A stretch of 64,000 bases of DNA from Deltaproteobacteria bacterium (GCA_031396695.1 JANNLG010000016.1:54494-118493); one strand, 5' to 3'. Counted from the stretch's first letter, positions 6,714-57,187 are shown. A program made the numbers and translations. The notes: generated from the letters alone by a model not told the origin.

Positions 6714-6794
6714 CCCGAGCGAGCGCCTTCGCGTCTTTGCGAGCTTGACCGGGGCCGCACATCCGCGGAACAAACCATATGGTCATATGACCGG

Positions 6795-31154: not shown

Positions 31155-31166
31155 CACGGAGGCGTG

Positions 31167-31927
<761 letters not shown>

Positions 31928-31931
<4 letters not shown>

Positions 31932-34928: not shown

Positions 34929-34931
34929 ACC

Positions 34932-39248: not shown

Positions 39249-39259
39249 GAGGGAATGCC

Positions 39260-39754: not shown

Positions 39755-39852
39755 TTGAGTGAGTTCCCCCCCCTGAAAAGGCGGAAGCGTCGGCACACGC
39801 TGCAGTGCCCGGTCGAGTTGAGTTGAGTTGGAAATACTGCAAGGAGAAGGCA

Positions 39853-40920
39853 ATGTTGAGGCATGACTTGAAACGATTGGCGAGTTCGCTCGCCGCCGCT
39901 GCGCTCTTGTGGAGCGCGGCGGACACCGCATCGGCCGTGGGCGCCGACGCGGGCATCACCGTCTCGAACACGGCATCGGTGGTCTACACCGTGAACGCCG
40001 TGCTTCAGCCGGCAGTGGCGAGCAACGCGGCCGACTTCGTCGTCGACCGCCTGGTCGATCTGACGGTGACGGCGATCGGGGTGACCTACACCTCCGTGAC
40101 GCCGGCGACGAACGGGGCGTTCCTGTTCTCGGTCGCAAACATCAGCAACGCCACCCTCGGGTTCAACCTGAGCGCGGCCAACAACGCGACGGATCCGTTC
40201 GGCGGCACCGACAACTTCGACCCGACTACGCTCACGGCGGTCGTCGATACGGGTGTCATCGGAACCTACGAGCCGGGCACCGACGTGGCGACCACGATGG
40301 ACACGGTCGCCGAGGACGGAACCTTCGGCGTGTGGATCGTCGCGGCGATCCCGGGCGGTCAGGGCAACCTCGACATCGCGGCGGTCACGCTGACCGCGAC
40401 GGCGCGCGAGCCGGGTATCGGCGGCGCGGCGCTCACCGAGGAAGTCAACCCGGAGAACCCGCTGGTCATGGAGACCGTGTTCGGCGACGGCGCGGGTGAC
40501 ACCGACGCGGTGCAGGACGCGGCCTTCTCGGACAGCGGCGCCTATCAGGTGGCTTCTGCGGACGTCACGATCACCAAGACCGAGACGCTGCTCAGCGACC
40601 CGATCAACGGTGCCGCGCCGAACGCACGCCACATTCCGGGTGCACTCGTCGAGTACGTGGTGACGGTCACCAACGACGCGGGCTCCGCGTTCCCCGCGAC
40701 CACGCTCACCATCAGCGACGTGCTGCCGGGTGACGTCACGTTCGCGCCGGATACGTACGGGATTGGCTCGGGCATCGACCTCGACGGCGCGCCGCAGACC
40801 AACGCGGCGGACTCGCCGACCGACGAGAGCTCGTTCGCAGCCGGAACGGTGACCGTGACCGTGCCGTCACTCGCAGCGGGCGCCTCTGCGGTCATCACCT
40901 TCCAGGTGACGGTGAACTAG
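39853..40920 (+). CDS. Secreted DUF11 repeat protein
   Basis: ATG 39853 preceded by AAGGAGAAGG; signal peptide LAAAALLWSAADTASA; GITVSNTASVVYTV motif; paralogous to 38259..39248. Confidence 0.55.
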   Translation: MLRHDLKRLASSLAAAALLWSAADTASAVGADAGITVSNTASVVYTVNAVLQPAVASNAADFVVDRLVDLTVTAIGVTYTSVTPATNGAFLFSVANISNATLGFNLSAANNATDPFGGTDNFDPTTLTAVVDTGVIGTYEPGTDVATTMDTVAEDGTFGVWIVAAIPGGQGNLDIAAVTLTATAREPGIGGAALTEEVNPENPLVMETVFGDGAGDTDAVQDAAFSDSGAYQVASADVTITKTETLLSDPINGAAPNARHIPGALVEYVVTVTNDAGSAFPATTLTISDVLPGDVTFAPDTYGIGSGIDLDGAPQTNAADSPTDESSFAAGTVTVTVPSLAAGASAVITFQVTVN

Positions 40921-41138
40921 CCACCGGCTAGCTCTCGATGGTGAGCCCCCTCCCCCCAGTGCCGCGGCACGTCGAGTGCCCGCGCGCCGGCCTACATGGC
41001 GGCGCGACGGGAGACTTGCGTTCGCGCACCGGGAACGGGCGCTCACCGGACCGCGACCATGCGGTTCGCACGTTGTGCCTCAACGAACCGGCTGCGACGG
41101 GAAAGCCCCGCCGCAGCCGGTTCCGCGAGGCGCTGGTG

Positions 41139-44100
41139 ATGCTCGCGCTCACCGTGCTTCTGTTTCCGTTCAGCGCACGCGCGCAGACACCCGCGGGCAC
41201 GCCGATCCCGAACACGGGCTACGCGACCTACGACATCGGCGCCACCACCGGAATCGTCCGGCCGTCGAACACGCTGGTCATCACGACCGCCGCGTTCGGA
41301 ACCAGTTCGAGCCTGGAGTTCATGCGCTATGCGCCCGGCGCTCCCGGCTCGATCACCTACGCCGTCTCGCCCACGCAGTGCTTCACGGGCGGATCGTTCA
41401 GCGCCCTGCCCGCGCCCACCGCGTACGGCGGCGGCGTGATCAACCTGGCCAACGTCGAGCTCGAGCTCACGTCGAGCTACCACCCGGGTGAGCCGGTCTT
41501 CGTGCGGCTGGTCGACGCGGATCAGAACCTGAATCCCGCGCTCGCCGAATCGATCCTGGTCACGCTCGCGACACCGAGCGTCGCGGACGTCGAGCAGCTG
41601 CAGCTCTTCGAGACTGGCGTGAACACGGGCATCTTCGTCGGCTACGTGCCCACGGCGGCGCCACCGGCGCCGGCGAACGACTGCGTGCTCGCCGCTCCGT
41701 CGGGTCAGACCGTCACCGGCAGCTACACCGATGCGAGTAACGCCGCGGACACCGATACCGACAGCGCGCTGATCGACCCCGAGAGCCGGGTCTTCGACAG
41801 CACGAACGGCTCGCCGGTCGACGGCGCGACCGTGACCCTGATCGACGACGCCACCGGACTGCCCGCTGCGGGCATCCTCGGCGACGACGGTCTCTCCGCC
41901 TTCCCCGCCACGCTCACCAGCGGCGGCTCGGTCACCGATGGCGGCGGGCAGATCTACAACTTCGGCCCGGGCGGCTACCGCTACCCGGTCGTTCCCGCGG
42001 GCAGCTATCGACTGCAGGTGACGCCGCCCGCCGCGTACACGTTCCCGAGCGGTGTGGCCGACGCCACGCTGCAGACCTTGCCCGGCGCACCGTTCGCGCT
42101 CGCGCTCGGCTCGCGCGGCGAAGTCTTCGCCGTGCCGGTCGGTCCGACCTTCCAGCTCGATCTGCCGGTCGACACCGCGTCGGGCTTCGGCTTCATCTCG
42201 ATCGACGCCAGCCGCGACGTGGTCTCGCTCGGCGAGCACTTCCAGTTCGACGTGCGCGTCGAAAACCCGGGCGTGCTCGGAGCGCCGCTCGGCGTCGACG
42301 TGACCGTCGTATTGCCGCTCGGCATCCGCTTCCTGCCCGGCAGCGTGCGCATCGACGACGGCAAGCAGCCCGATCCGGTGATCTCGCCGGACGGCCGCAC
42401 CCTGACCTGGACGCTACCCGCGAGCGCGCTCCCCGTCGTGACACACATCCGGTTCACCGTGAAGGTCGGGCCGAGCGCCGAGATCGGCCTCACGCGCACC
42501 ACCGCGCGCGCGCAGGCGCTGGGCGGAACGAGCACCGAGGACGCCGTCGCCACGGTGCGGGTCGTCGAGGACCTGGGCGCGAACAACTCCTACATCCTCG
42601 GCCGCGTTTCCGAGGGCGCCTGCGACACCGACGACTTCGGCGGCAAGGGCGTTTCGGGCGTGCGGGTGTACCTCGAGGACGGCTCGTTCTCGATCAGCGA
42701 CTCGAACGGCTACTACCACTTCGCCGGCGTCGTTCCCGGCGCGCACGTGGTGCAGATGGACGTGCAGAGCCTGCCCGGCTTCTACGAGCCGCTGCCGTGC
42801 GCGAAGGACGAAGGCCAGGCCTTCGCCGGCCGGCCGTTCTCGCAGTTCGTCGAGATGCAGGGCGGAACGATGTGGCGCAGCGACTTCCGTGTGCAGATGC
42901 GCGCGCGCGCGCAGGGCGGCATCAGCCAGCGGCTCGAGAGCCAGCTCGTCGGCGACACCATCCACTATCAGCTCGCGCTGCGCGGCAACGGCGTGGCCGT
43001 GCGCAATGCGCGTGCGATGGTGATGCTGCCCGAGGGCGTCCAGTTCGTGCCCGGCAGCACGCGCGACGCGGGCGCGCCGATGGCGGATCCCGAGTTCAAG
43101 GACGGCGTGCTCGTCTACCGGCTCGGCGAACACACCGAAGACAACTGGACGCTGGATCTCACGTTCGATGCGAAGCCCACGGGCCCGAGCGAGCGCCAGC
43201 TCGAGACGTCGTCCGTGGTGATGTTCGAGACGCCGGTCGAGAAGATCGGCAGGACGCCCGTCGCGAAGACGTTCCTTTCCGGCGAGTCGAGCTCGGGCAG
43301 CGGCATCCAGGTGGTCGAGACGCTCGGCCTGCGGCCGGGTGAGGATTGGAACTCGGTCACGACGCCCGCACCCGACGTCACGCCCGTGAAGCCCAGGGTG
43401 TTCAACAAGGCCTGGCTCGAGCAGGCGCAGCCGGGCTTTGCGTGGCTGTCGCCCGAGCCGGGCTTCGCCGCCGCGATCGCGAGCGTGAACATCGCCATTC
43501 AGCACGCGCCCGGCACCACACTCGAGCTGACGCAAAACGGCGTCGCGGTGCCCAAGTTCAACTTCGAGGGCGAGTTCTCCAACAACGCCAAGACCGTCTC
43601 GCTGTCGCGCTGGCGCGGCGTGGATCTGGTCGACGGCGAGAACGCCTTCGTGGTGCGCGCGCTCGACGCGCAGGGCAACGAAGTCGAGCGCTTCGAGCGC
43701 GGGCTTCACTTCGCCGGTCCGCCGTTCCGTGCCGAGCTCGTGCCCGAGCTCTCCAAGCTGGTGGCCGATGGCACCACGCCGCCGGTGATCGCCGTGCGCT
43801 TCACCGACGAGGACGACAAGCCCGCGCGCGAAGGACAGGTCGGCACGTTCCAGGTCGAGGCACCGTACCGCCCGAACCTCGAGCCCGCGCTGCGCGAGCT
43901 GAAGCGTCAGGCGGGCCAGCCGCCCGAGTTGCCGAGCTACGCGATCGGTCAGGACGGCATCGCGCTGATCGAGCTCGCGCCCACCACCACTTCCGGACGC
44001 GTGAACCTCCGCTTCGCGCTGGCCGGCAACCACGAGAAGAAGCTCCACCCCTGGCTCGAGGCGACCGCGCGCGAGTGGGTGCTGGTCGGCCTGACCGGTG

Positions 44101-46640
44101 GCACGCTCATGTACGACTCGGTCTCGGAGCACAGCGAGAGTCTCGTGCCGGGCGGCGTCGAGGACGGCTACGACCTCGACCGCGGCACCACCGTGTTCGC
44201 CAAGGGCCGCGTGAAGGGCTCGTGGCTGCTCACCGCCGCCTACGATTCGCGCCGCGAGTCGTACGAGTCGTCGAACGACATCGACCGCGCCGCGCTCGAA
44301 GGCGGTCTCGATCCGAACCAGTACTACACACTGTACGGTGACGAGACCACGCAGGGTTTCGAAGCGCCGAGCCAGCGCAAGCTGTACGTGAAGCTCGAGC
44401 GCAAGCAGTTCTACGCGCTGTTCGGCGACTTCCAGACCGGCCTCACGGTCACCGAACTGTCGCGCTACAACCGCAGCCTGAACGGTTTCCACACCGAGTA
44501 CGACGGCGACTACGTGAGCTTGAACGCGTTCGGCACCGACACCAGCCAGGCCTTCGTGCAGGACGAGATCCGCGGCGACGGCACGTCGGGCCTGTACCGG
44601 CTCTCGCGCCGCGAGATCGTGCTTAACAGCGAGACGGTATCGATCGAGATCCGCAATCGCTTCCACGGCGAGCAGGTGATCTCGACCGAGAACCAGGTGC
44701 GCTGGGTCGACTACAACATCGACTACAGCTCGGGCACGATCTTCTTCAAGCGGCCGATCCCGAGTACGGGCGAGGGCTTCAACCCCGTCTTCATCGTGGT
44801 GGAGTACGAGGCCGACGACGACTCGGACGAGGAGATCAACGGCGGCGGACGCGCGGCCGTGAAGCTGTTCGACGACAACGTCGAGCTCGGCACCTCGCTG
44901 ATCCACGAGGGCACGGTCGGGCAGACCTCGAGCCTGTACGGCAGCGATCTGCGCATCGACCTCGACGCCTCCACCAGCCTGCGCGGCGAGTACGCGATGA
45001 CGCGCTCGGCGCTGCTCGACTCGGACCTGGATCCAAACGGTGGCGCGTGGCTCGCGGAGCTTTCGCGCCGCGATCGCGATCTCGACTCGCGCGTGTACTG
45101 GCGCGAGCAGCGGCCGGGCTTCGGGCTCGGCCAGCAGAGCGCGAGCGAAACGAACATGCAGCAACTCGGCCTGGACGCGCGCTATCGCCTCTCCGACTCG
45201 CTCTCGCTCTCGGGCGAGGCGTTCCGCCAGGTCGACAGCGCCTCCGACGCGCGCCGCGATCTGTTCCAGGGCCGCGTCGATCACCACGAGGGACCGGTCA
45301 GCGCCTACGGCGGCCTGCGCTTCGCGCACGACGTGTTCTCGGACGGTGAGGACGCGTCGTCGCCGCAGGCGCTCGGCGGGGGCAGCTACACCCTGTACCA
45401 GAACCGACTGAAGCTGCGCGCCGACACGGAAGTGACGCTCTCGGGCGACGAGAGCCTCGACTTCCCGACGCGCTTCCTGGTCGGCGCGGACTTCGAGCTG
45501 CTGCCCGAGCTGACCGTGTTCGGCGAGGAGGAGTTCACGCTCGCCAGCGAGCGCAGCACCGCTTCCACGCGCGTGGGCTTGCGCACGAGCCCGTGGTCCG
45601 GCGGCCAGGCCACCGCGGCGATCGGCCAGCGCAGTCAGCAAGACAGCGCGCGCCTGTTCGGCACGCTCGGCCTGTTGCAGACCTATCAGCTCAGCGACGC
45701 GCTTTCGTTCGACTTCGCGGTCGACAACTCCGTGACACTCTCCGGTGACGACACGGCCGCGACCTCGATCTCGCCGTTCGCGCCCAACCAGCCGGTGAAC
45801 TTCGGCCTGGCCGGCAACGCGCAGGGCGACGACTTCACCTCGGTCTCCGTGGGCACCACCTACGCACAGGAGCTGTGGGCCGCGAACCTGCGCCTGGAGA
45901 CGCGGATCGGCAACGTGCAGGACAAGTGGAGCATCACCGCGGGCGCCTACCGCGAGCTCGCCGAGGGCATCGGCGTGGCCGTGCGCGCCGAATTCTTCGA
46001 CGCCAGCGGCTCGAGCTCCTCGCTCACCACCGGACCGGACGCGACCTCCGGCCCGGTCTACAGCTCCGACGGCAGCTTGCGCCCGAACACCGCCTACGAC
46101 GGCATCGAGTCGCTCGGCAAGCTGCGCGTGTCGGCGGTGTACCGTCCGATCGGCGGCCGCTACACGCTGCTCGAGTCACTCGAGCTGCGCAACGAGCGCC
46201 TGGACGACGCCGTCTTCCAGAGCAGCGCCACGCGCATCGTCAACAACATGAACCTGAACATCAAGCTCGATCGCAAGACGCAGGCTTCGCTGCAGTACGG
46301 CGCGAAGTACCTGCTCGAAGAGATCGACGGCGAGAACCTGCGCGGCTACACCGACGTGACGGGCCTCGAGCTGCGCCGCGCTCTGTGGGGGAGCTGGGAC
46401 GTCGGCGGCCGCGTGGGCATGCGCCACTCCTGGAGCGACGCCAACATCCAGGAGCTGTACGGCGTGTCGCTCGGATACATCCTGATGAAGAACATGTGGG
46501 TGAGCGCGGGCTACAACTGGGAAGGCTACCGAGACTCGGACTTCTCGGAAGGCGAGTGGACGAGCCGCGGGCCGTACATCTCGTTCCGGTACAAGTTCGA
46601 TCAGGAGACGGTGAAGGAGCTGCTCGACTGGGCGGAATAG
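41139..46640 (+). CDS. Giant (1834 aa) surface protein: signal peptide, DUF11-like repeats, carboxypeptidase-regulatory/SdrD-B-like segment, large C-terminal beta-rich domain
   Basis: Start taken at the ATG giving MLALTVLLFPFSARAQTP; upstream in-frame codons from 40938 lack signal character. Contains GTPIPNTGYATYDIGA DUF11 motif and SDSNGYYHFAGVVPG (CarboxypepD_reg-like). The C-terminal ~900 aa is Tyr/Gly/Ser/Asp-rich with alternating hydrophobics, consistent with a beta-barrel or beta-sandwich. Confidence 0.6.
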   Translation: MLALTVLLFPFSARAQTPAGTPIPNTGYATYDIGATTGIVRPSNTLVITTAAFGTSSSLEFMRYAPGAPGSITYAVSPTQCFTGGSFSALPAPTAYGGGVINLANVELELTSSYHPGEPVFVRLVDADQNLNPALAESILVTLATPSVADVEQLQLFETGVNTGIFVGYVPTAAPPAPANDCVLAAPSGQTVTGSYTDASNAADTDTDSALIDPESRVFDSTNGSPVDGATVTLIDDATGLPAAGILGDDGLSAFPATLTSGGSVTDGGGQIYNFGPGGYRYPVVPAGSYRLQVTPPAAYTFPSGVADATLQTLPGAPFALALGSRGEVFAVPVGPTFQLDLPVDTASGFGFISIDASRDVVSLGEHFQFDVRVENPGVLGAPLGVDVTVVLPLGIRFLPGSVRIDDGKQPDPVISPDGRTLTWTLPASALPVVTHIRFTVKVGPSAEIGLTRTTARAQALGGTSTEDAVATVRVVEDLGANNSYILGRVSEGACDTDDFGGKGVSGVRVYLEDGSFSISDSNGYYHFAGVVPGAHVVQMDVQSLPGFYEPLPCAKDEGQAFAGRPFSQFVEMQGGTMWRSDFRVQMRARAQGGISQRLESQLVGDTIHYQLALRGNGVAVRNARAMVMLPEGVQFVPGSTRDAGAPMADPEFKDGVLVYRLGEHTEDNWTLDLTFDAKPTGPSERQLETSSVVMFETPVEKIGRTPVAKTFLSGESSSGSGIQVVETLGLRPGEDWNSVTTPAPDVTPVKPRVFNKAWLEQAQPGFAWLSPEPGFAAAIASVNIAIQHAPGTTLELTQNGVAVPKFNFEGEFSNNAKTVSLSRWRGVDLVDGENAFVVRALDAQGNEVERFERGLHFAGPPFRAELVPELSKLVADGTTPPVIAVRFTDEDDKPAREGQVGTFQVEAPYRPNLEPALRELKRQAGQPPELPSYAIGQDGIALIELAPTTTSGRVNLRFALAGNHEKKLHPWLEATAREWVLVGLTGGTLMYDSVSEHSESLVPGGVEDGYDLDRGTTVFAKGRVKGSWLLTAAYDSRRESYESSNDIDRAALEGGLDPNQYYTLYGDETTQGFEAPSQRKLYVKLERKQFYALFGDFQTGLTVTELSRYNRSLNGFHTEYDGDYVSLNAFGTDTSQAFVQDEIRGDGTSGLYRLSRREIVLNSETVSIEIRNRFHGEQVISTENQVRWVDYNIDYSSGTIFFKRPIPSTGEGFNPVFIVVEYEADDDSDEEINGGGRAAVKLFDDNVELGTSLIHEGTVGQTSSLYGSDLRIDLDASTSLRGEYAMTRSALLDSDLDPNGGAWLAELSRRDRDLDSRVYWREQRPGFGLGQQSASETNMQQLGLDARYRLSDSLSLSGEAFRQVDSASDARRDLFQGRVDHHEGPVSAYGGLRFAHDVFSDGEDASSPQALGGGSYTLYQNRLKLRADTEVTLSGDESLDFPTRFLVGADFELLPELTVFGEEEFTLASERSTASTRVGLRTSPWSGGQATAAIGQRSQQDSARLFGTLGLLQTYQLSDALSFDFAVDNSVTLSGDDTAATSISPFAPNQPVNFGLAGNAQGDDFTSVSVGTTYAQELWAANLRLETRIGNVQDKWSITAGAYRELAEGIGVAVRAEFFDASGSSSSLTTGPDATSGPVYSSDGSLRPNTAYDGIESLGKLRVSAVYRPIGGRYTLLESLELRNERLDDAVFQSSATRIVNNMNLNIKLDRKTQASLQYGAKYLLEEIDGENLRGYTDVTGLELRRALWGSWDVGGRVGMRHSWSDANIQELYGVSLGYILMKNMWVSAGYNWEGYRDSDFSEGEWTSRGPYISFRYKFDQETVKELLDWAE

Positions 46641-46665
46641 CTCGCGTTCGCGAAGCGAACGCGAG

Positions 46666-48018
46666 CTAGTGGCCTCGCAGGCTGGATTGGGAGATCTGGC
46701 GCGCGAGCTTCTTCTCGTCGGTCGGGATGGATACCGCGTTCCACTGCTCGCTGCGTACGGAGTCCTGGTTGCTCCAGTCGATCAGTGCGCTGCCGACGCC
46801 GTCGATCACGCGGACCGGGCGCGTCGGGTCGTCGGCCCAACGGGGATAGTCCTCGCGGTCTTCGCTCCAGCGTCCGACGAAGTAGCCGAGTCCGCCTTGC
46901 GTCGAGCCGTCGCGGTAGGCGGCGTAGTAGAGCGGGAAGAGCGTCTGCAGGTCCAGGTACCAGACGTAGCGGCGTACGCCGTCGCCGAACGAGCCTTGCT
47001 TCAGGCGTCCTTCGATCACGAGCGCACGGCGTAGCTCCCAGCGGTCGTTCGCGAACGACACGCCCGCGGGACCGAAGCCGCGCGACTTGTCCTCGGGGTA
47101 GATCGGCGCGCGCGCGTTGATCGGCGCGAGCACGTCGCGCACGCCGACGAGCCTCCAGTCATGGAGCTGCGGTGACTCGCCGTGCAAGAACAGGCCGTCG
47201 CCGATGCTCGCGTCCACGAGACAGCCGGTGAGCGGCGACTCGGAGTCGGGAGCGGTCGCCCGACTCACCTTGCGCGCGGCTCCGTTCCAGACGAAGAAAT
47301 CCGGCAGCCGGTTGCCACTGTCGTACTGCCGGAAGGCGCACTCTCCGCCGGTGTCCAGGTTGCGCGACGCGCCGCCCGCCGCCCACAGCGCGCGGGTCGA
47401 GGACGGAAAGCGGAAGTCCTCGCTCTCGCGATCCGCGCGCCCAACGAGCGGCACGAAGAAGTAGTCGCCGGTGAATCGCTGCTGCAGATCCTTCGCGAGC
47501 AGGCTGATCCGATACTCGCCGAAGCTGCCGCCCGCCTGGTAGCGCGAGACCCAGTTCCACGCCCAGCGCAGCGCAGCCTGTGGATCGTTCGGATCGATCG
47601 AGTCGGGCGCGAACGGCAGACCCGCGCGGTGGTTCTCGAGCTCGCCCTCGGGCGTGAGCCGCGCCTCGCCGCGGAAACGCTCCGTCACCTTCGCGAAGAA
47701 CTCCGGCGGCGCGTAGTCGCGATAGCACGGGCCGATCTCCAGATGCATCCCGTCGTAGAAGAAGCGCTCGCGGTTGGCCCACAGCTCCTCGGGCACGTAG
47801 CCCTGCAGCGCTTCGGTCTTCTTCTCGTCGAGCACCTCGCCCACGCGAAACGGCGGCGGCACCGCGTCCGCGCCGGGACGCACGAGCGCGCCGGTGGTCT
47901 CACACGACCCCTCCGCGGGAATCGCCCATGGATCGGCCGGCTCGGCCGCGATCGACCCGGCCGAAGAGACGAGCGCGATCCAACACACGAGCGTCGCTCC
48001 GCGCCTGCATTCGAGCAT
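46666..48018 (-). CDS. Secreted hypothetical protein (possibly DUF1329/LolA-like)
   Basis: ATG 48018 with GGAGG RBS; signal peptide TLVCWIALVSSAGSIAA; 450 aa. Family assignment is uncertain. The rest of the 46666..48582 ORF is shadow. Confidence 0.5.
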   Translation of the reverse strand: MLECRRGATLVCWIALVSSAGSIAAEPADPWAIPAEGSCETTGALVRPGADAVPPPFRVGEVLDEKKTEALQGYVPEELWANRERFFYDGMHLEIGPCYRDYAPPEFFAKVTERFRGEARLTPEGELENHRAGLPFAPDSIDPNDPQAALRWAWNWVSRYQAGGSFGEYRISLLAKDLQQRFTGDYFFVPLVGRADRESEDFRFPSSTRALWAAGGASRNLDTGGECAFRQYDSGNRLPDFFVWNGAARKVSRATAPDSESPLTGCLVDASIGDGLFLHGESPQLHDWRLVGVRDVLAPINARAPIYPEDKSRGFGPAGVSFANDRWELRRALVIEGRLKQGSFGDGVRRYVWYLDLQTLFPLYYAAYRDGSTQGGLGYFVGRWSEDREDYPRWADDPTRPVRVIDGVGSALIDWSNQDSVRSEQWNAVSIPTDEKKLARQISQSSLRGH

Positions 48019-48066: not shown

Positions 48067-49281
48067 ATGACGACACCCTCCGATCCGTTTCTCGGCGCGA
48101 ACCCGCTCGATCCCGCGTTCCGCGCCGATCCGCACCCGGCGCTGAAGCGCCTGCGCGAGACCCACCCCGTACACGAGACGGTGATCGGGCTGTGGCGGCT
48201 CTCGCGCTACGCGGACTGCGTTCGGCTGCTGCGCGACGCGCCGACGGGCGTGCGCCTCTCCGACGGCACGCGGCCGGGGCAGGACCGCATCCCCGCCGCG
48301 CTCGGCTCGTTCGGGCAATTCATGCTGCAGCAGGATCCGCCCGCGCACACGCGCCTGCGGCGGCTGGTGTCGAAGGCGTTCACGCCGCGCGCGATCGAGC
48401 GCCTGCGCGCGCACGTGCAGAAGCTCGCCGACTCGCTCGTCGAGCGCGCGCTCGAGCGCGGCGAACTCGACGCGATCGCCGATCTCGCGCTGCCCGTTCC
48501 GTCGACCGTGATCTGCGAGATGATGGGCGTCCCGCTCGCCGACCGCGAGCGCTTCACGCAGTGGACCGCGCACTCGACCCACCTGCTGGCCGCGTTCGCC
48601 GCGCCACCCGACGTGCTCGAGCGCGGCGTCGCCGCCTCGCAGGCGCTCGCGAGCTACTTCGAGGCGCTGATCGCGGAGCGCCGCAAGTCACTCGGCGACG
48701 ATCTGCTCTCGAACTTGATCCGCGCCGAGGAGGCCGGGGATCGGCTGTCGCCGCAAGAGCTGCTCTCGCAGTCGATCGGCCTGTTGATCGCGGGCTTCGA
48801 GACCACGATCGGCCTGATCGGGAACGGCCTGCTCCAGCTCCTGCGCCACCCCGCCGAGCTCGCCAAGCTGCGCGCGAACCCGGGCCTGATCGGATCCACC
48901 GTCGAGGAATGCCTGCGCTTCGACGGCCCGATCCTGCTCACCGTGCGCATCACCCAAGACGAAGTTCGCTTCGGCGAGCAGGTGATCCCGAAGGACCGCA
49001 TGGTGATGGCGCTGCTCGCCGCAGCGAATCGCGATCCCGAGGTGTTCCCCGACCCCGAGCGCTTCGACATCGAGCGCACGCCCAACGAGCACATGGCCTT
49101 CGGCGGCGGCACTCACTTCTGCCTGGGCGCGCACCTGGCGCGCATGGAGGCGCAGGCCGCGATTGGCGCGCTGGTGCGCCGCTCGTCGAAGCTCGAGCTC
49201 GTGTCGGACCAGCTCGAGTGGGGTCAGTCGCTGTTCCGCGTGCTCGGCAAGCTGCCGCTGCGGGTCACGCCGGCGCGCTGA
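48067..49281 (+). CDS. Cytochrome P450
   Basis: Heme-binding loop FGGGTHFCLGAHLAR, EXXR (ECLRFDGP), I-helix AGFETT. Confidence 0.85.
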   Translation: MTTPSDPFLGANPLDPAFRADPHPALKRLRETHPVHETVIGLWRLSRYADCVRLLRDAPTGVRLSDGTRPGQDRIPAALGSFGQFMLQQDPPAHTRLRRLVSKAFTPRAIERLRAHVQKLADSLVERALERGELDAIADLALPVPSTVICEMMGVPLADRERFTQWTAHSTHLLAAFAAPPDVLERGVAASQALASYFEALIAERRKSLGDDLLSNLIRAEEAGDRLSPQELLSQSIGLLIAGFETTIGLIGNGLLQLLRHPAELAKLRANPGLIGSTVEECLRFDGPILLTVRITQDEVRFGEQVIPKDRMVMALLAAANRDPEVFPDPERFDIERTPNEHMAFGGGTHFCLGAHLARMEAQAAIGALVRRSSKLELVSDQLEWGQSLFRVLGKLPLRVTPAR

Positions 49282-51166
49282 CGAAGCCGGCGGACGCGAG
49301 CTCCGTGCGCAGCGCGGAGCCGGGGGCGAGCAGGCGGATCAGCGCCTGCACGGCGGGGCGCTCGAGCCGCCGCTTCGGCACCACGAAATCGTAGTGCTCG
49401 AAGCGCAGCGGGCGAAAGCGCAGTCCCGACTCGCGCGCGACGCTCTCGATCGTCACACCCCAGTCGGCCCGGCCTTGCGCGACCGCCGCCGCGACCGCGT
49501 TGTGCGAACGCGGCTCGTAAGCGAAGCCGTCGGGACGCCGACCGCCGAGCAGACCGTCGATCAGCACGCGCGTGCCGCTGCCGCGATTGCGGTTCACCAT
49601 ACGCAAGCTCGTGTCGGCGACGAGCGCCTCCGTGGGCCTGCGCTCGTCCTCGCGCGTCACCACGCCCTGCATGCGCAGGTAGCCGGGCACCAGGGCGAGA
49701 GACTCGTCGAGGAACGGCGTGTTGTAGGTGTCGGTGGACGGATCGAGCAGGTGCGCGGGCGCGACGTCGCACTCGCCGCGGCGCGCGGCCTCGATCCCGC
49801 CCTGCGAGCCGACCGCGAGCAGCTTCACCGAGAAGCCCTCCGCGTGCAGCGCGCGCGCGATCCGATCCAGGCCCGTGCAGTGGCTGCCGATCACGACCAG
49901 GTCCGCCGGCTCGAGCGAGGGGCCGAGCAGAATCACCTCGACTTCCGTGTCCGCCTCGACGATCTCGAGGTTGCGACCCAGCCGCACGAAGCCGTCGGCG
50001 CGGCTCCAGGTCGTGACGCTGCCGCTGCCCTTTCCCATCGGGTACGCGCCGAGCTCGCCGCCTTCGCCCCGCACCAGCCCGACCAGCAGATACTCGAGCC
50101 GCCCGCGCTCGGTGTGGGTGCGCAGCGCGAGCTTCGCGCGCACCGCCTCGGAGCGCAGCGGCGGCGCGCCCGCCAGCCGGCGCAGCACCGGCGCGACGAA
50201 TTCGTGGAACGTGAACACCGCCGAGGTCGGGAAGCCGGGCAGGATCACGACGGGCTTTCCGTGGTGCGCGGCCAGGCAGATCGGCTTGCCGGGCTTGAGC
50301 GCCACGCCGTGCACGAGGATGCCCGGCTCGAGCTCCGCGACCACGCGGTACGAGAGGTCACCCTCGCCTTTCGACGTGCCGCCCGACAGAACCACCGCGT
50401 CGCACGCGGCGAGGCCCCGCTCGAGCGCGCGCCGCAGCGCGGATTCCTCGTCGCGGAACGCGCCGAAGAAGACCGGCTCGCCGCCGAGCTCGCGCACGGC
50501 GTCGGTGATCATGCGCCCGTTCGAATCGAACACGAGCCCCGGGCGCATCGCGTCGCCCGGGTCGATGATCTCGTCGCCGGTCGAGATCACCGCGACGCGC
50601 GGCTTGCGCACCACCGGAATGCGCGCGGCGCCGATCGCCGCCAGCACGCCGGTCTCGCGAGAGGAGAGGCGCTGGCCCGCGAACAGCACGGTCTCGCCCA
50701 GGCCGATATCGGTGCCCGCGAACGAGACCGCCGCGCCGGGCACGCGCGCCGCGCGCACCACCACGATCCGGTCGCCGTCTTCGACGTCGGTCATCTCCAC
50801 GGGCACGACCGCGTCGGCGCCGCGCGGCAGCATGCCGCCGGTCGCGATCGGCGTCGCCGTGCCGGGCTCCACACTGAGTCGCGGGTGGACACCGGTGGGG
50901 ATCGACTCGTCGTTTCGGCGCAGGCGCACCGGCTCGAGCTCGCTCGCGCCGTAGGTGTCCTGCGCGCGCACCGCGAAGCCGTCCATGTTCGAGCGGTCGA
51001 AGCTCGGCACGTCGACGGGCGCGCGCACTTCGCCGGCGAGCACGCGGTCGAGCGCGATCTCGAGCGGGATCTCCTCGCTGTCGAGCCGCGCGAGCGCGAG
51101 CGCGGCGTGCCAGCGCTGCTCGGCGACGTCGCGGTCGAGCACCTCGAGAAACTGCTCCTGCTTCAC
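49265..51166 (-). CDS. moeA: Molybdopterin molybdo/tungsto-transferase MoeA fused to C-terminal PBP-like domain
   Basis: MoeA N-terminal and MoCF-binding domains (VLSGGTSKGEGD) followed by a ~230-aa periplasmic-binding-protein-like domain. GTG start overlaps the upstream moeA stop (GTGA). Confidence 0.7.
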   Translation of the reverse strand: MKQEQFLEVLDRDVAEQRWHAALALARLDSEEIPLEIALDRVLAGEVRAPVDVPSFDRSNMDGFAVRAQDTYGASELEPVRLRRNDESIPTGVHPRLSVEPGTATPIATGGMLPRGADAVVPVEMTDVEDGDRIVVVRAARVPGAAVSFAGTDIGLGETVLFAGQRLSSRETGVLAAIGAARIPVVRKPRVAVISTGDEIIDPGDAMRPGLVFDSNGRMITDAVRELGGEPVFFGAFRDEESALRRALERGLAACDAVVLSGGTSKGEGDLSYRVVAELEPGILVHGVALKPGKPICLAAHHGKPVVILPGFPTSAVFTFHEFVAPVLRRLAGAPPLRSEAVRAKLALRTHTERGRLEYLLVGLVRGEGGELGAYPMGKGSGSVTTWSRADGFVRLGRNLEIVEADTEVEVILLGPSLEPADLVVIGSHCTGLDRIARALHAEGFSVKLLAVGSQGGIEAARRGECDVAPAHLLDPSTDTYNTPFLDESLALVPGYLRMQGVVTREDERRPTEALVADTSLRMVNRNRGSGTRVLIDGLLGGRRPDGFAYEPRSHNAVAAAVAQGRADWGVTIESVARESGLRFRPLRFEHYDFVVPKRRLERPAVQALIRLLAPGSALRTELASAGFVSAPA

Positions 51167-52434
51167 GGCCGCACCGCGCTGCGCAGCGCCGCGCCCTCGC
51201 GCGAATCTTCGTCGTAGAGCAGAACCTCGACCTCGGCGCCCTCGGGCATGCCCTCGAGCTCCCGCGGCACGATCACGGCGCCGTCGGCGCGCACCGTCGA
51301 CGACAGGATCGACGCGCCCGCGGTGGCGAGCGGCGCCACGCGCTCGCCTTCGAAGGCGACGCGCACGTAGTCCGTGCGGCCCACCTCGGAGCTGAGCTTG
51401 CGCGCAAGCACCGCCCGCACGCGCCTGTGCGGCCAGGCACGCGTGCGGCCGCCGAGCGCGCGAATCGAGGGCCCGGCGAAGAACTCGTACGCGCACAGGC
51501 AGCTGACGGGATTGCCCGGCAAGAGGAATACCAGCGCGGCGCCGATCCGGCCGCCGCCCGCCGGGCTCGAGGGGCGCATCGAGACGCCGTGGAAGAGCAG
51601 CTCACCGTGTTCTGCGAGCAGCCGCGGCGCGTGGTCTTCGGCGCCGACGCTCGAACCGCCGGAGACCAGCACGACGTCGGCGTCGCCGGCCGTCAGCGCG
51701 GCGGCGATCAGCTCAGGACGGTCCGGGATCAGCTCGAACGGCAACAGCGCCCCGCCGTCGCGCGCGACCAGCGCGCGCAGCACCACCGAGTTCGAGTCGA
51801 CGATCTTGACGCCGTTCGGTGTAGAGCCGGGCGGAAGCAGCTCGTCGCCGGTGACGACGAGCTTCACGCGCGGCCGGCGCACGCAGGCGACGGAGCCCTG
51901 GCCGATCGACGCGATCAAGCCTGCGTCCTGCGGCCGGAGCCGGCGGCCCGCCCGGAGCACGAGCTCGCCGGCGCGGATGTCCTCGCCGATGGCGCCGATG
52001 TTCTTGCGCGGCGCGACCGGCTCGTGCAGGACGACGCGCCCGCCGCGCTCCTCGCAGACCTCCGCCTTGACGACCGCGTCGGCGCCGGCGGGGACCGGCG
52101 CGCCCGTCATGATGCGCACCGCCTCGTCCTTGCCCACGCGCCCGGCGAACGCGCGGCCGGGAAGGGTCTCGCCGATCAGCGCGAACTCGAGCCCCGCGTA
52201 GTCGGAGGCGCCGAACGTGTCCTCGCCGCGGAGCGCGTAGCCGTCCATGGCCGAGCGCGCGAAGCTCGGCACGTCCACGCGCGAGACGACACCCTCAGCG
52301 AGCACGCGACCGACGCAGTCGAGCACGCCGACGGGCTCCGCGGCAAGACTCGCGCACAGCCCCGCGAGCAGGCGATCGACCTCCTCGACGTCCTTCCGCT
52401 CCGCGAATCCCCGCATCCGCACGTCGCGAGTCAT
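51163..52434 (-). CDS. moeA: Molybdopterin molybdotransferase MoeA
   Basis: SAMDGYAL, VLVSGGSSVGAEDH, LPGNPVS motifs; 423 aa. Confidence 0.8.
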   Translation of the reverse strand: MTRDVRMRGFAERKDVEEVDRLLAGLCASLAAEPVGVLDCVGRVLAEGVVSRVDVPSFARSAMDGYALRGEDTFGASDYAGLEFALIGETLPGRAFAGRVGKDEAVRIMTGAPVPAGADAVVKAEVCEERGGRVVLHEPVAPRKNIGAIGEDIRAGELVLRAGRRLRPQDAGLIASIGQGSVACVRRPRVKLVVTGDELLPPGSTPNGVKIVDSNSVVLRALVARDGGALLPFELIPDRPELIAAALTAGDADVVLVSGGSSVGAEDHAPRLLAEHGELLFHGVSMRPSSPAGGGRIGAALVFLLPGNPVSCLCAYEFFAGPSIRALGGRTRAWPHRRVRAVLARKLSSEVGRTDYVRVAFEGERVAPLATAGASILSSTVRADGAVIVPRELEGMPEGAEVEVLLYDEDSREGAALRSAVRP

Positions 52435-52468
52435 CGCGGAACCCGAGCCGCCTTCGGTGCTGTCCCTT

Positions 52469-54190
52469 TCAGCCGGCCGCTTTGGTCGTGTAGAGCTTGT
52501 CGCGTCCCGGCTTGCGCACCTTGGCGTCGGCGATGATCTCGGCGGGCACGTCGAAGACGACCTTGGCCGGACCGATCGCGTCCTCCTTCATGCACGCCGG
52601 GAGCACGTCGTCGGCGTCGGTGAAGCCGGCGCGGCGGTTGAACTCCCACTCGTCCAGCAGCACCTGCCAGCCCTGGTCGGCGATCTCTTCGCGCGAGATC
52701 TCGCGCCCGACCATGAAGCCGTAGAACTGGCGGATGTCGTCGAGCGTCGGCTGCACGAACTGGCAGAAGCCCGACGAGTCGCAGACCGCGTTCACCAGCT
52801 GCACTTCCTGGGAGGCCTGCGCGAACTGGTCGGCGGGGAGACCCGGGTTCACGACCAGCCCCGCGGTGTGATCCGCCCCCTGCGCGCTGGTCGCGTAGGT
52901 CACGCCCGTGGCCTTGAGCGGCCGCGGATCCCAAGCCGGGATCGCCTGACCGCGCACGACCGGCACGCGGTGGTGCTTGGTGTGCTTCCCGGTCGCGGCG
53001 CAGCCGTTGCCGATCACCTTGCCGAGCTCGGTGCCCTTGCCCACGTCGGCGACCAGCTTCTTCATCGCCGCCGCGTCACCCCAGCTCATCTTGCCCGCGT
53101 CCATCAGCACGCCGATCGCGGCGCCGGTCTCGATCGTGTCGAGACCCACCTCGTCGCACAGCCGGTCGAGGTCGGCGACATCCTCCCAGCTCGCGACCGC
53201 GCAGTTCGAGCCGAGCAGCGTCAGCGTCTCGAACTCGAGCGCGCTCGTCACGTAGTTGCCCTTGCCGTCGTGCACGACGTTCGAGCACTTCACGATGCAG
53301 CCAGTCAGGCAGTTGTGCATGCCACCGCCGCGCTTGTCGAAGCTCTCCACGATGCGCGCGCCGTCGAGCGTCGCCGCGTCGGGCGACTGGCCCGAGGTGC
53401 GATTCTTGTACGGGAAGGTGTGGAGCATGTTCGCGACGGGCACGACCGACGAGGTGCCGGTCTTGAACATCTGCGGTCCGTCCAGGTACCCGCGCGTGTA
53501 CTTCTTGGAGAGCTCGTTGAAGCCGGCCTTGTCCTTCGGCTCGCGCACGCGCGCCTTGCCGCGCTCGACCGCGACGAACTTCAGGCGCTTGGAGCCCATC
53601 ACCGCGCCCACGCCGCCGCGCGCCGCGTGGCGCGCCGGGTGGCGGCTGTCCTGGTCGGTGCAGGCGACCGACGAGCCCTTCAGCATCTGCTCGCCCGCCG
53701 GGCCGATCGTGATGAACGAGGCGTTCTTCGTGTACTTGTGGGTGAGCTCTTCGCAGGTCGCGTAGTTCCACTTCAGCGCCAGGTCGTCGGCGGGCACGAT
53801 GCGCACGCCCTTGTCGTCGCACTCCAGACCGTAGAGCCGCTTCATGTCCTTCGGCTGACCCTTCACGACGATCGCGCGGATGCCGAGCTTGTTCAGGTCC
53901 TGGCCGGGATTGCCGCCGACGTTGGCTTCCTTGATGCCGTTGGTCAGCGGGCTCTTGCAGCCCACGCTGAGCCGGCCCGAGGTCGGCGCCGAAGTTCCGG
54001 CCAGCACGCCGGGCGCGAGCACAAGCACGTTCTCGGCGCCGAGCGGATCGCACTTGGCGTTCTTCAGGTCGCGCAGCAGGATCTTGGCCGACAGCCCGCG
54101 CCCGCCCAGCAGCTCCCATTCCGCCGGCAGATTCTCATTCGAGACGGTCAGGTTGGTCATGTCGACGTGAACGAGCTTGTCGCCTTGCAT
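52469..54190 (-). CDS. aor: Aldehyde:ferredoxin oxidoreductase (tungsten/molybdopterin-containing AOR family)
   Basis: 573 aa; AOR N-terminal domain (GGRGLSAKILL...) and pterin-binding domains. GGAGGA RBS before ATG 54190. Confidence 0.85.
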   Translation of the reverse strand: MQGDKLVHVDMTNLTVSNENLPAEWELLGGRGLSAKILLRDLKNAKCDPLGAENVLVLAPGVLAGTSAPTSGRLSVGCKSPLTNGIKEANVGGNPGQDLNKLGIRAIVVKGQPKDMKRLYGLECDDKGVRIVPADDLALKWNYATCEELTHKYTKNASFITIGPAGEQMLKGSSVACTDQDSRHPARHAARGGVGAVMGSKRLKFVAVERGKARVREPKDKAGFNELSKKYTRGYLDGPQMFKTGTSSVVPVANMLHTFPYKNRTSGQSPDAATLDGARIVESFDKRGGGMHNCLTGCIVKCSNVVHDGKGNYVTSALEFETLTLLGSNCAVASWEDVADLDRLCDEVGLDTIETGAAIGVLMDAGKMSWGDAAAMKKLVADVGKGTELGKVIGNGCAATGKHTKHHRVPVVRGQAIPAWDPRPLKATGVTYATSAQGADHTAGLVVNPGLPADQFAQASQEVQLVNAVCDSSGFCQFVQPTLDDIRQFYGFMVGREISREEIADQGWQVLLDEWEFNRRAGFTDADDVLPACMKEDAIGPAKVVFDVPAEIIADAKVRKPGRDKLYTTKAAG

Positions 54191-54238
54191 CGCAATCCTC
54201 CTCGAAAGTATGGGCAGCGTACCACCGGACTCCGGCCT

Positions 54239-54498
54239 TCAGCCACCCGCGATCGCGGCCACGATCTCGAGCTCGTCGCTGGCCGCGAGCGGCTGGTCGA
54301 GGCGCTTGGCATCGACCGGCTCGCCGTTCACGAACAGCTTCACGAAGCGGTGCAGGTTTCCGCGCGCGTCGAACACCTGCGGGGCGAAGCCGGGGAACTT
54401 CTTCTCGACCGCCTCGATCGCGGCGCGCACGGTCGCGGCGTCGACGGCCAGCTCCTCCTGGCCGTGGGTCGGCCCGCGGTAGGGCGAGGGGATCAGGA
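54239..54498 (-). CDS. moaD: MoaD/ThiS-family sulfur-carrier protein
   Basis: 86 aa from GTG 54498 (RBS GGAGGTG 8 nt upstream); ends ...EIVAAIAGG (C-terminal Gly-Gly). Confidence 0.65.
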
Positions 54499-54524
54499 TT
54501 CTGGGCACTTTTTCACCTCCACGA

Positions 54525-55292
54525 TCAGAACGCGAACACCCGGAACTCGTGGGTGCCACGGAAGCCGAGCGACGCGAACAGCGCGCGCGCCGCTTGCTCT
54601 CCGTCCTTCAGCTGGATCACCACGCGGCGCTCCGGGCTTTCCAGCGCGCGCACCGCCGCGCTGGCGAGCGCGCGCGCGTAGCCCTGACGGCGGCAGTCCT
54701 CGCGCGTCTCGAGGTGCGCGAGCAGCGCCACGCGCTCGCTCGTGAAGCGCGCCCCCGCGACGGCGGCGAGCTCGCCGTTCGCGTCGCGAATGCCGAAGAA
54801 CGGCCCCAGCTCGAGCTCGAGTCGCGCGAAGCTCGTGCCACAGTAGTGTGTCAGCTCGTCCGCGTCCGTGATCGCCTCCACGCGCGGGTCGCGCGCGGGC
54901 AGCGGCACGCCCGAGTCGAGCCGCGCCATCTGCAGCTCGGTGCGAATCTCGCGCCCGCCCGCGCGCGCGACCTGCGCCCCCAGACGCGCCGGCACCGGGC
55001 ACACGAACGGCCTCGGCATGCGCGGCAAGAGCGCCGCCGCGACCCCGGGCAGCGCGCCGTCGACCGCCACGACGCGGAACGGAAACAGCCCGTCGATGGC
55101 GGCCGCGAGCCCGACCACGCGCTCGCCGTGCAGCGATTCGACCACCTCGACGCGCGCGAGCAGGCCCGGCACCTCGAGCGCCGCGTGCAGCCACAGCCGC
55201 TCGAGCAACGCCGCGCGCGCAAATGCACGCGCCGCCGCGAGCGCGGCCGAGTCCCCTTCCTTCAGGGGCCGATACACGTAGCGACTTGCCAT
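54525..55292 (-). CDS. GNAT family N-acetyltransferase
   Basis: C-terminal acetyl-CoA-binding-like segment (RRQGYARALASAAV...). Weak call. Confidence 0.5.
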   Translation of the reverse strand: MASRYVYRPLKEGDSAALAAARAFARAALLERLWLHAALEVPGLLARVEVVESLHGERVVGLAAAIDGLFPFRVVAVDGALPGVAAALLPRMPRPFVCPVPARLGAQVARAGGREIRTELQMARLDSGVPLPARDPRVEAITDADELTHYCGTSFARLELELGPFFGIRDANGELAAVAGARFTSERVALLAHLETREDCRRQGYARALASAAVRALESPERRVVIQLKDGEQAARALFASLGFRGTHEFRVFAF

Positions 55293-55369
55293 CCGGCGCC
55301 GATCCTAGCCCATCCTGTCTGCAGGACGGTCTTACGAATTGTGATCAACGACCCCCTAGACAACCCGCT

Positions 55370-55690
55370 TCAGGCGGCACCCTTCTGGATCGCGGCCATG
55401 TACGCGCGCAACACCGCATTGATCCTCGACTGGTAGCGGGGACCCTGCGCCTTGAACCAGTTCAGAACGTCCTCGTCGACCCGAAGCGAGATCGGCTGCT
55501 TCGGAGTCGGGTGAACGACCGAGGCGGTCTCGAAGAAGTCAGCCGGAAGATCCGCGAGCTCCGGCGGCGAAGTGCCGCGAATCGTCCGCTCCGTCGACTT
55601 TCGAAGGCGAGCGAGATTCGCTCGTCCGCGGCGCGGCTTTTCACTCTTGCGAGAGGGCTTGGTAGTACGCTTGACGTTCACGACGATCAC
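55370..55690 (-). CDS. brnA: BrnA antitoxin (CopG-like)
   Basis: C-terminal ISLRVDEDVLNWFKAQGPRYQSRINAVLRAYM matches the BrnA family signature. The start may be an internal codon, since this ORF overlaps brnT by ~50 nt. Confidence 0.6.
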   Translation of the reverse strand: MIVVNVKRTTKPSRKSEKPRRGRANLARLRKSTERTIRGTSPPELADLPADFFETASVVHPTPKQPISLRVDEDVLNWFKAQGPRYQSRINAVLRAYMAAIQKGAA

Positions 55691-55946
55691 TCATGCGAGC
55701 CGAGATGATTCTGCGGATCACGACGCCGGCCTCGGCCCGGTCGGTGTAGACGACGGTGAGCGCATTCCCCTGAGCCAGTCCGATCGTAACCACACGCTGC
55801 TCCCCGTAGTCCCGGCGCTGATCCTGGCGCTCGAGCGTGGGGCCCTCGAATACGAGGGTTGCGAACTCGAAGTCGAATCCGCGTGCACGAAGGTTTTCTT
55901 CACTCCTGCGAAGATCCCACGCGAAGCGCACTCGTCCAAAATACAT
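55641..55946 (-). CDS. brnT: BrnT toxin (DUF497 ribonuclease)
   Basis: FAWDLRRSEENLRARGFDFEFATLVFEGP...VVTIGL...ISARMSDRRERQAY matches the BrnT/DUF497 pattern. Start is ATG 55946 or the GTG 5 codons downstream. Confidence 0.6.
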   Translation of the reverse strand: MYFGRVRFAWDLRRSEENLRARGFDFEFATLVFEGPTLERQDQRRDYGEQRVVTIGLAQGNALTVVYTDRAEAGVVIRRIISARMSDRRERQAYYQALSQE

Positions 55947-55961
55947 CTGTATATACAGATG
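55944..55961. repeat. Perfect 18-bp palindrome CATCTGTATATACAGATG overlapping brnT start codon
   Basis: Seen directly. Contains TATATA; candidate TA operator and/or -10 element. Confidence 0.5.
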
Positions 55962-56315
55962 CGCAATCGACGAGTTCGCGGAAGCGGCCACGGGCGGACG
56001 TGCTCCCGCCCCCTCGGCTTCTTGAAGGAAAGAGGCATCCAATTCGCGAATCCGACGGCTTCCTCTGTGGACGGTTCATCGCTCCTGGCTACGCCACGGC
56101 CTCACGATGGCGTCCACGTCGAGATCCGATGGATGCCACCTTCTAGGAATCGGTGGTAGAAAGAACCCCTACAGATCATTGCCTTCATGACATAGGCCAC
56201 TTGCGTTCGACCACGACGTGATCGACTACGACCGGCATCACTACACGTTGACGCGCGCGAGTGGACGGTCATCGAGGCCCGCGGACTCGCGCCGAGACGA
56301 ACGCAGGGGCGGGCC

Positions 56316-56373
56316 GGATGGGGGTCGACGAAGCGGTCGGCTGTGCCGGGCACCGCTGAGGAGACCCCCATCC
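56316..56373. repeat. Nested GC-rich inverted repeat (11-bp perfect arms GGATGGGGGTC/GACCCCCATCC with inner 6-bp IR AGCGGT/ACCGCT)
   Basis: Seen directly in the 470-bp non-coding, lower-GC spacer between the SDR stop (56417) and brnT. Confidence 0.5.
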
Positions 56374-56416
56374 GGCGCGCCCCGGCACTCGCACTCACGA
56401 ACGAATACGCGGTGCG

Positions 56417-57187
56417 TCAGCCCTTCGGCGGCATCCGGATCGCGCCGTCGAGCCGGATCACTTCCCCGTTCAGCATGCCGTTCTCGATGATCGAACGGGC
56501 GAGGTGCGCGTACTCGACCGGGCGGCCGAGGCGGCGCGGGAACGGGATGTTGGCGGCGAGCGCCTGGCGTGCGGGCTCGGGCAGGCCGGCGAGCAGCGGC
56601 GTGTCGAACAGGCCCGGCGCGATCGTCACCACGCGGATGCCGAGCGAGGACAGGTCGCGCGCGACCGGCAGGGTCATGCCGATCACCGCCGCCTTCGAGG
56701 CTGCGTAGGCGATCTGCCCGATCTGTCCGTCGTAGCCGGCGACCGAGGCGGTGTTCACGATCACGCCGCGCTCACCCTCGCTGTCTGCGTCGTTTTTGCT
56801 CATGCGGTGGGCTTCGAAGCGGATCGCGTTGAAGGTGCCGACCACGTTCACCTCGAGCACCTTCATGAACGGCTCGAGCGGGTGTGGTCCTTCCTTCGTC
56901 ACGGTGCGCTGTGCCCAGCCGATGCCCGCGCAGTTCACCGCGATGCGGATTCCGCCGAATTCGGCGACGGCGCGGTCGACCGCGGCCTCGACCTGGTCGG
57001 CCTTGGTCACGTCGCAGGGGCAGAAGATCGTGCCGCGGCCGAGCTCGGCGGCGACTTTCTCGCCGGGCGAGCGCGGCAGGTCGAGGATCGCGACGCGCGC
57101 GCCGGCGGCGATCAGCTCAGCGACCGTCGCGCCTCCGAGTCCGGACGCTCCACCCGTGACGACGGCGCCAGCGCCCTGGATCTGCAT
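56417..57187 (-). CDS. SDR family oxidoreductase (3-hydroxyacyl-CoA dehydrogenase type-2/HSD10-like)
   Basis: ATG 57187 ([20 protein letters not shown]), YAASKAAV catalytic motif. The rest of the 56417..58474 ORF is shadow over speA. Confidence 0.8.

Follow-up and report, generated by a model that had tools for sequence, protein, structure and literature searches.

A conserved four-gene cassette in uncultured Myxococcota joins an aldehyde:ferredoxin oxidoreductase to a MoaD-like protein and two MoeA paralogues

Why should a single gene for an aldehyde:ferredoxin oxidoreductase (AOR) be followed by two genes for the metal insertase MoeA, one of them fused to a domain that resembles periplasmic binding proteins (PBP-like)? 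The question is raised by positions 49265-55292, on the minus strand, of a 64-kb stretch of DNA from a Deltaproteobacteria bacterium (GCA_031396695.1 JANNLG010000016.1:54494-118493; G+C ~70%), which we refer to as the window. We identified there a conserved unit of four genes, moaD-like, aor, moeA, and moeA-PBP. The best explanation, to which we assign a probability of roughly 0.6, is that this cassette encodes an AOR together with dedicated late steps in the making of its metal-bis-pyranopterin cofactor, with the two MoeAs cooperating and the metal likely entering as tungstate.

Gene identities were assigned from Pfam and NCBIfam profile scores, judged against curated or gathering cutoffs. 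Five consecutive open reading frames (ORFs) occupy the region, each as rich in G+C at third codon positions as genuine genes of this DNA tend to be, in the order GNAT, moaD-like, aor, moeA, and moeA-PBP. A previous reading made from the DNA alone (the sequence-only reading) had described an AOR operon of this order that also holds a MoaD-like carrier and a pair of MoeA genes, of which one is PBP-fused; the ORF and domain evidence bears this out, including the identity of the fused domain as PF12727. Its observation that the two MoeA genes are coupled by GTGA is also correct, as the start of moeA-PBP and the stop of moeA overlap at 51163-51166.

To compare the arrangement among relatives, we scanned each species through a single genome and obtained 12 loci (L001-L012) with a close AOR relative (64-97% identity). 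All lie in metagenome-assembled genomes (MAGs) of uncultured Myxococcota or 'Deltaproteobacteria', some of them labelled Spirochaetaceae; a Myxococcota MAG comes closest, at 97%. Every related locus with a long enough contig kept the order moaD-like, aor, moeA, moeA-PBP, and the flanking genes varied between sub-lineages. Since the order recurs over this range of AOR identity with differing flanks, the arrangement is not due to chance. The moeA/moeA-PBP junction showed a 4-nt NTGA overlap (GTGA, ATGA, or TTGA) in all ten complete loci; an unrelated moaC-moaB-moeA-moeA/PBP-MOSC contig also carried a 4-nt overlap.

The gene at the head of the operon, which had been called an unexplained GNAT gene, is indeed there (54525-55292), encoding a GNAT-family acetyltransferase of 255 aa with GNAT domains at residues 162-249 (Acetyltransf_1, 34.7 bits, cutoff 20.7; FR47, 36.3 bits). 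Its place in the operon held up less well. Of the 12 loci, just the closest two, L001 and L002, have an orthologue, and none lies upstream of moaD in L003-L012. Moreover, the GNAT-moaD junction is not conserved even in L002, because the two are separated by an oppositely oriented gene of 1.8 kb (5719-7563, minus strand, in that locus), whose 614-aa product is a predicted membrane protein that carries TPR-like repeats at its C-terminus, and GNAT there adjoins the upstream SDR gene. On these grounds the conserved unit is the four genes, and GNAT is a lineage-specific neighbor, not a component of the module, although it is probably co-transcribed with the cassette in this window. Between the SDR gene and GNAT, the window also holds overlapping ORFs for a BrnT toxin (55641-56042, minus strand) and a BrnA antitoxin (55370-55690, minus strand). 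As SDR and GNAT are adjacent in L002, and neither L001 nor L002 gave a match to BrnT/BrnA, this toxin-antitoxin pair looks recently inserted.

The AOR (52469-54190; 573 aa) scored well above cutoff for both family domains, PF02730 (AFOR_N; 192.9 bits, cutoff 29.8; E=6.6e-57) and PF01314 (AFOR_C, domains 2 and 3; 193.2 bits, cutoff 27; E=1e-56), and aligned with the solved relatives 9mqx, 1aor, 1b25, 9g7j, 9q1t, and 8c0z at E values of 1e-44 to 1e-52 and ~30% identity. The named equivalogs were below cutoff (NF007354, PRK09849, 96.9 vs 868; NF040818, GAPOR, 17.9 vs 1300), and, judged by these profiles, the enzyme belongs to neither the PRK09849 AOR nor the GAPOR subtype. Its metagenomic relatives number in the thousands, the best 120 being 68-98% identical and all carrying generic names only, and a search of plasmids for a closer annotated AOR gave a best match of ~36% identity (Thermus megaplasmids). 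The clade is large, tightly conserved, environmental, and apparently uncharacterized. AorA- or AorC-like electron-transfer subunits were not encoded beside aor, which indicates a single-subunit type.

Clade-invariant residues were determined from an alignment of 15 clade members, and their positions were mapped to the Pyrococcus furiosus enzyme (PfAOR) by HMMER alignment. The pterin motifs D346-E-V-G-L-D-T and D471-S-S-G-F-C-Q, as well as E319/E321 and H441 next to the metal, align with PfAOR sites and are invariant in all 15. For PfAOR, we take D338 and D489 to be the pterin-motif Asp residues and E313 and H448 to be the metal-proximal Glu and His (Chan et al. 1995). The equivalents of PfAOR Arg76 and Asn93 are likewise invariant, R73 is kept in the AOR, and the equivalent of Lys450 is Ala. 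The sequence-only reading had considered an AOR homolog lacking pterin-binding residues; this does not apply here, because both pterin motifs and the metal-proximal Glu and His are invariant throughout the clade.

Directly upstream of aor lies the MoaD/ThiS-like beta-grasp protein (54239-54508; 89 aa; PF02597, 41.5 bits, cutoff 22.5). The GG tail and strong ribosome-binding site reported for it were both confirmed: the protein ends in Gly-Gly, and a Shine-Dalgarno-like GGAGGTGA (54513-54520) stands 4 nt before its GTG start. An orthologue occupied the same position in all 12 loci, always ending in AGG. The protein fell below the NCBIfam cutoffs for NF041918 SAMP1 (44.8 vs 60) and TIGR01687 moaD_arch (33.9 vs 49.5). 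Neither MoaE nor an E1-like MoeB partner was found in a Pfam scan of the ~48 ORFs of the window; both may lie elsewhere in the genome. We regard the protein as a putative carrier of sulfur that serves the cofactor of this AOR specifically.

The two MoeAs are 33-38% identical to each other. The unfused MoeA (51163-52434; 423 aa) matched MoeA_N, MoCF_biosynth, and MoeA_C above gathering cutoffs, and the fusion (49265-51166; 633 aa) comprises the three MoeA domains, likewise above cutoff, at residues ~23-414 followed by PF12727 at ~441-613. Against NCBIfam NF011068 (PRK14498; cutoff 534), the fused protein scored 726.9 bits, its residues 1-617 covering profile positions 1-624 of 647, and the unfused MoeA scored 345.5 bits, under the cutoff. 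Its score above the cutoff places the fused architecture in a curated, named family. Among solved structures, MoeA-PBP is closest to 1uz5 of P. horikoshii (E=7.8e-85), whereas 1xi8 and 1wu2 of Pyrococcus come nearest to the unfused MoeA (E ~1e-70).

Both paralogues retain D59, T100, D142, E188, D228, and D259 (E. coli numbering), as do the orthologues of ten loci. The oxyanion sites differ, as judged against the canonical set of Cnx1E (K294, G296, K297, S328, R369, and S400). MoeA-PBP keeps the KPGKP loop, the Ser of LPGFPTS, the Arg350 equivalent (GR), and Ser371 (GSG). In the unfused MoeA, the loop is RPSSP and Ser371 is replaced by Ala (GAS) in all ten loci; in Cnx1E terms, G296 and K297 become Ser and S400 becomes Ala, and the equivalents of R369 and S328 are kept. 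Variants of the RPxxP/GA(S/G) type predominate among the nearest 50%-identity representatives of the unfused MoeA.

The nearest relatives of the unfused MoeA at 45-50% identity (L013 6001-7266, L015 3315-4517, and L017 6001-7227) are stand-alone proteins encoded away from moeA-PBP or aor, and they carry the non-canonical loops KPARP, RPGGP, and RPGAP. Among such stand-alone relatives, one lies in the 7.6-Mb genome CP036279 and another beside Planctomycetes-type PSCyt2/PSD1/DUF1501 genes. We considered whether the RPSSP loop might signify a loss of function. This idea is weakened by the similar loops of the stand-alone relatives and by the dispensability of the Lys297 side chain, a site occupied by Leu in gephyrin (PMC13262936). 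Because stand-alone moeA relatives carry such loops, the variant is probably compatible with ordinary insertase activity.

The C-terminal domain of the fusion (49328-49846), which is cytoplasmic, met the Pfam gathering score for PF12727 (E=4.7e-49), and it gave no match to the sequences of solved structures in the PDB even at E<=10. An AlphaFold2 model built from 40 homologues was confident (predicted local distance difference test, pLDDT, 91.5) and showed a type-II periplasmic-binding-protein fold. Its structural neighbors, which include PstS, ModA, TupA, and WtpA, feature many proteins that bind phosphate, molybdate, tungstate, or sulfate. The PF12727 match and this fold agree with the relationship to PBP-like oxyanion binders that had been suggested for the domain, and the model is compatible with oxyanion binding. 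We rejected an assignment of the ligand from the fold, as the neighbors mix oxyanion binders with LysR effector domains and amino-acid binders.

These features suggest a division of tasks within the cassette. The GG-ended MoaD-like protein would most likely carry sulfur, as a thiocarboxylate, to the dithiolene of the pterin that this AOR will receive. The start/stop overlap would allow the archaeal-type MoeA pair to be produced in fixed proportion, and the two paralogues would most likely load an oxyanion onto the pterin jointly, and not as alternatives for molybdenum and tungsten. The PBP-like domain probably catches this oxyanion, most likely tungstate, and passes it on to where insertion takes place. 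Once mature, the AOR may then oxidize aldehydes to acids or catalyze the reverse reaction, with a ferredoxin-type partner encoded elsewhere. Cooperation is consistent with transposon fitness data from Desulfovibrio vulgaris (2023), in which a plain MoeA and a PF12727-fused MoeA were both required for a tungsten Aor, with a cofitness of 0.85, and were considered not to be metal-specialized (PMC10102598). In P. furiosus, both MoeA1 and MoeA2 co-migrate with tungsten enzymes of the AOR family (PMC10221389).

Several observations weigh against a cooperating, tungstate-loading MoeA pair serving this AOR. With regard to the metal, the Pfam scan found no tupABC, wtpABC, modABC, or other molybdenum cofactor (Moco) genes in the window, and none appeared in the recurrent gene clusters within ±8 kb of the 12 relatives, as judged from their sequences only. 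A Moco riboswitch was not detected at Rfam gathering thresholds in the whole window, nor at E<=1 over 54100-56500. Nothing in the window or in the flanks of the relatives marks tungsten specifically, and the tungsten signature of Methylorubrum extorquens MoeA1 (KPGR with Ala for Ser303) is absent from both paralogues. With regard to the insertases, a small neighbor-joining tree likewise placed the two MoeAs with their archaeal counterparts, but its bootstraps were no higher than 0.55 and 0.61. The fold of the PBP-like domain resembles LysR effector domains just as closely, and amino-acid binders are also among its neighbors, so the fold does not define the ligand.

The enzyme itself also departs from the classical pattern. 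In alignments to 1aor and 9mqx, Met291 takes the place of the first cluster cysteine (PfAOR Cys288); C294 and C298 align with the second and third, and C476 is the fourth. An extra Cys302 lies four residues past the third cysteine, within a 4-residue insertion, giving a CxxxCxxxC triad in the shifted motif M291-H-N-C294-x3-C298-x3-C302 (53285-53320, from the HMMER alignments). M291, C294, C298, C302, and C476 are all invariant in the 15 clade members. Finally, the window encodes O2-dependent enzymes, a cytochrome P450 (48067-49281, plus strand) and a luciferase-like monooxygenase (22872-23957, plus strand). Classical AORs are oxygen-sensitive, and such enzymes in one window with the aor gene suggest a facultative lifestyle or an oxygen-tolerant AOR.

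Among the alternatives, the one that survives best is that the unfused MoeA is a specialized partner and not a second insertase: either a subunit of a heteromer, or a catalyst or scaffold of another late step, such as the assembly of two pterins or delivery to the apo-AOR. Its RPSSP loop and the Ser371-to-Ala change were constant across ten of ten loci, and the Cnx1E counterparts of these sites, G296 and S400, show nearly 100% conservation among eukaryotic insertases, with a predicted loss in molybdate binding for G296A (PMC13262936). The strict coupling to MoeA-PBP and the non-redundancy of the D. vulgaris paralogues point in the same direction. Nevertheless, the unfused MoeA has lost none of its catalytic Asp, Glu, and Thr residues, its nearest relatives outside the cassette have similar loops (RPGGP, KPARP, RPSSP) and are encoded by stand-alone genes in surroundings like those of Planctomycetes, and a side chain at Lys297 is not needed, as noted above. 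We hold this alternative to be unlikely. In its most specific form, which is tentative to the same degree, the unfused MoeA would be no redundant or molybdenum-specific insertase but an obligatory partner of MoeA-PBP, either in a heteromer in which only the PBP subunit binds tungstate or as the catalyst of a step that assembles or delivers the two-pterin tungsten cofactor of AOR enzymes. If that were so, the four-gene cassette would represent a minimal self-contained AOR maturation unit.

A second alternative concerns the metal. To our knowledge, E. coli YdhV is the sole molybdenum-containing member of the AOR family, and the present AOR could likewise depend on molybdenum, with the cassette making Mo-bis-pyranopterin. 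The lack of a tungstate transporter gene in the window or in the flanks of the relatives would fit, as would the presence in MoeA-PBP of every canonical molybdenum-insertase residue listed for Cnx1E, a host that looks aerobic or facultative from its P450 and luciferase-like monooxygenase, and the identity of only ~30% between this AOR clade and any characterized tungstoenzyme. Against this, the solved AOR-family relatives matched here are described as tungsten enzymes, the homologous MoeA pair of Desulfovibrio works for a tungsten Aor, and in 86% of the bacterial cases TupA accompanies the MoeA-PBP fusion, at the same locus in 28% (PMC11733289). A molybdenum enzyme seems rather improbable, and a cassette that loads tungstate remains the reading we prefer.

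Lastly, the sequence-only reading took the duplicate MoeA next to aor as a sign that one copy is dedicated to tungstate. In its full form, the PBP-fused MoeA would insert tungstate for the AOR and the other would insert molybdate for molybdoenzymes. Such a division has been proposed for archaeal MoeA1-PBP and MoeA2 (PMC11733289), and a genuine pair of tungsten-specific and molybdenum-specific MoeAs exists in M. extorquens, albeit of a different protein type (PMC13197769); the KPGKP and RPSSP loops of the present paralogues do differ. We consider it doubtful that one copy handles tungsten and the other molybdenum, because both genes lie downstream of one aor and are coupled in ten of ten loci, which would be odd for a general molybdenum insertase, because the D. 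vulgaris tungsten Aor needs each paralogue, and because neither protein bears the M. extorquens signature.

The surroundings of the cassette were also surveyed. The P450 gene is convergent with moeA-PBP, and their 3' ends overlap by 17 bp (49265-49281); no terminator-like site was found at this overlap. Sigma-70 promoter-like sites were not found, and intrinsic terminator-like sites occurred only at chance level. Elsewhere in the window, on the plus strand, 29236-35270 holds an iron-sulfur cluster assembly operon (Rrf2-family regulator, SufB/D, SufC-like ABC ATPase, SufS-like class-V aminotransferase, NifU-like scaffold, and FeS_assembly_P), in which 31931-33052 is a gap outside the Pfam scan. 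Region 38259-48000 encodes three DUF11-repeat proteins, then a 1900-aa protein (40938-46640) with a weak CarboxypepD_reg match, and then a DUF1329 protein on the opposite strand; these genes may form a cell-surface or outer-membrane system. A 1052-aa ORF (25322-28480, minus strand) matches a haem-binding ChaN/Tiki domain and, weakly, Redoxin, and may merge more than one gene because its third-position G+C is below that of its neighbors. A single tRNA gene (20585-20657, plus strand) was the sole Rfam match in the window at the gathering threshold.

Why many tungsten users keep two non-redundant MoeAs has been stated to be unknown in two recent papers (PMC10102598, PMC11733289). With the enzyme, the carrier, and both MoeAs in one operon, an arrangement kept across a lineage of uncultured Myxococcota, the cassette offers a compact natural test object for whether the MoeAs form a complex and for the ligand of the PBP domain. 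Recombinant tungsten AORs in active form are sought for acid-to-aldehyde biocatalysis, and a self-contained maturation cassette could be of practical use in this regard.

How does the cassette compare with known systems? MoaD genes adjacent to AOR genes were described by Iyer, Burroughs & Aravind (2006) as a sporadic, possibly mobile cluster with MoeA as an occasional neighbor, and were proposed to act in tungsten cofactor synthesis (PMC1779556); aorD and aorE of Aromatoleum aromaticum encode MoaD-like putative maturation factors of the tungsten cofactor (PMC6365974). The present locus shares with both a MoaD-like gene immediately beside the AOR gene, but it is without MoeB, MoaE, ferredoxin, pyridine-nucleotide disulfide oxidoreductase, AorA, and AorC. 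The MoeA pair resembles that of archaea, where MoeA1-PBP and MoeA2 are contiguous, as they are in some bacteria according to a 2025 study; in a model of the archaeal-type MoeA1-PBP, a groove formed by the PBP domain leads to the active site, and the channelling or selectivity for tungstate that it might confer is a published hypothesis (PMC11733289). The likeness lies in contiguous paralogues, one of them PBP-fused, and in the Pyrococcus structures nearest to each. That study gave just a few anaerobic bacteria by name and tied the pair to tupA, whereas here the host is a member of the Myxococcota and the pair stands behind aor with no tup genes nearby.

The same trio occurs in D. vulgaris Hildenborough as Aor (DVU1179), MoeA (DVU2990), and MoeA-PBP (DVU0951), the MoeAs being ~33% identical there (PMC10102598). 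Their locus tags are widely separated, in contrast to the single coupled operon, including moaD-like, found here; the AORs were compared by description only. With the AOR of P. furiosus (1AOR) and other tungsten AORs (9mqx, 9g7j, 8c0z, 9q1t, and the FOR 1b25), our enzyme shares the Pfam domains, the DxxGL(C/D) motifs, and the fourth cluster cysteine; it differs in its ~30% identity, a length shorter by ~30 residues, the CxxxCxxxC motif with Met at the first position, and Ala for Lys450. PF12727 reportedly also serves as a cytoplasmic tungstate/molybdate sensor in the HTH regulator TunR, which Kazakov et al. are said to have described in 2013 as a tungstate-responsive repressor of Desulfovibrio; there its fusion partner is a DNA-binding domain and here a metal insertase, a likeness drawn by Pfam domain only. 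Every element of the cassette has thus been published before, and the locus is a known type of gene cluster in a new lineage and no new kind of system.

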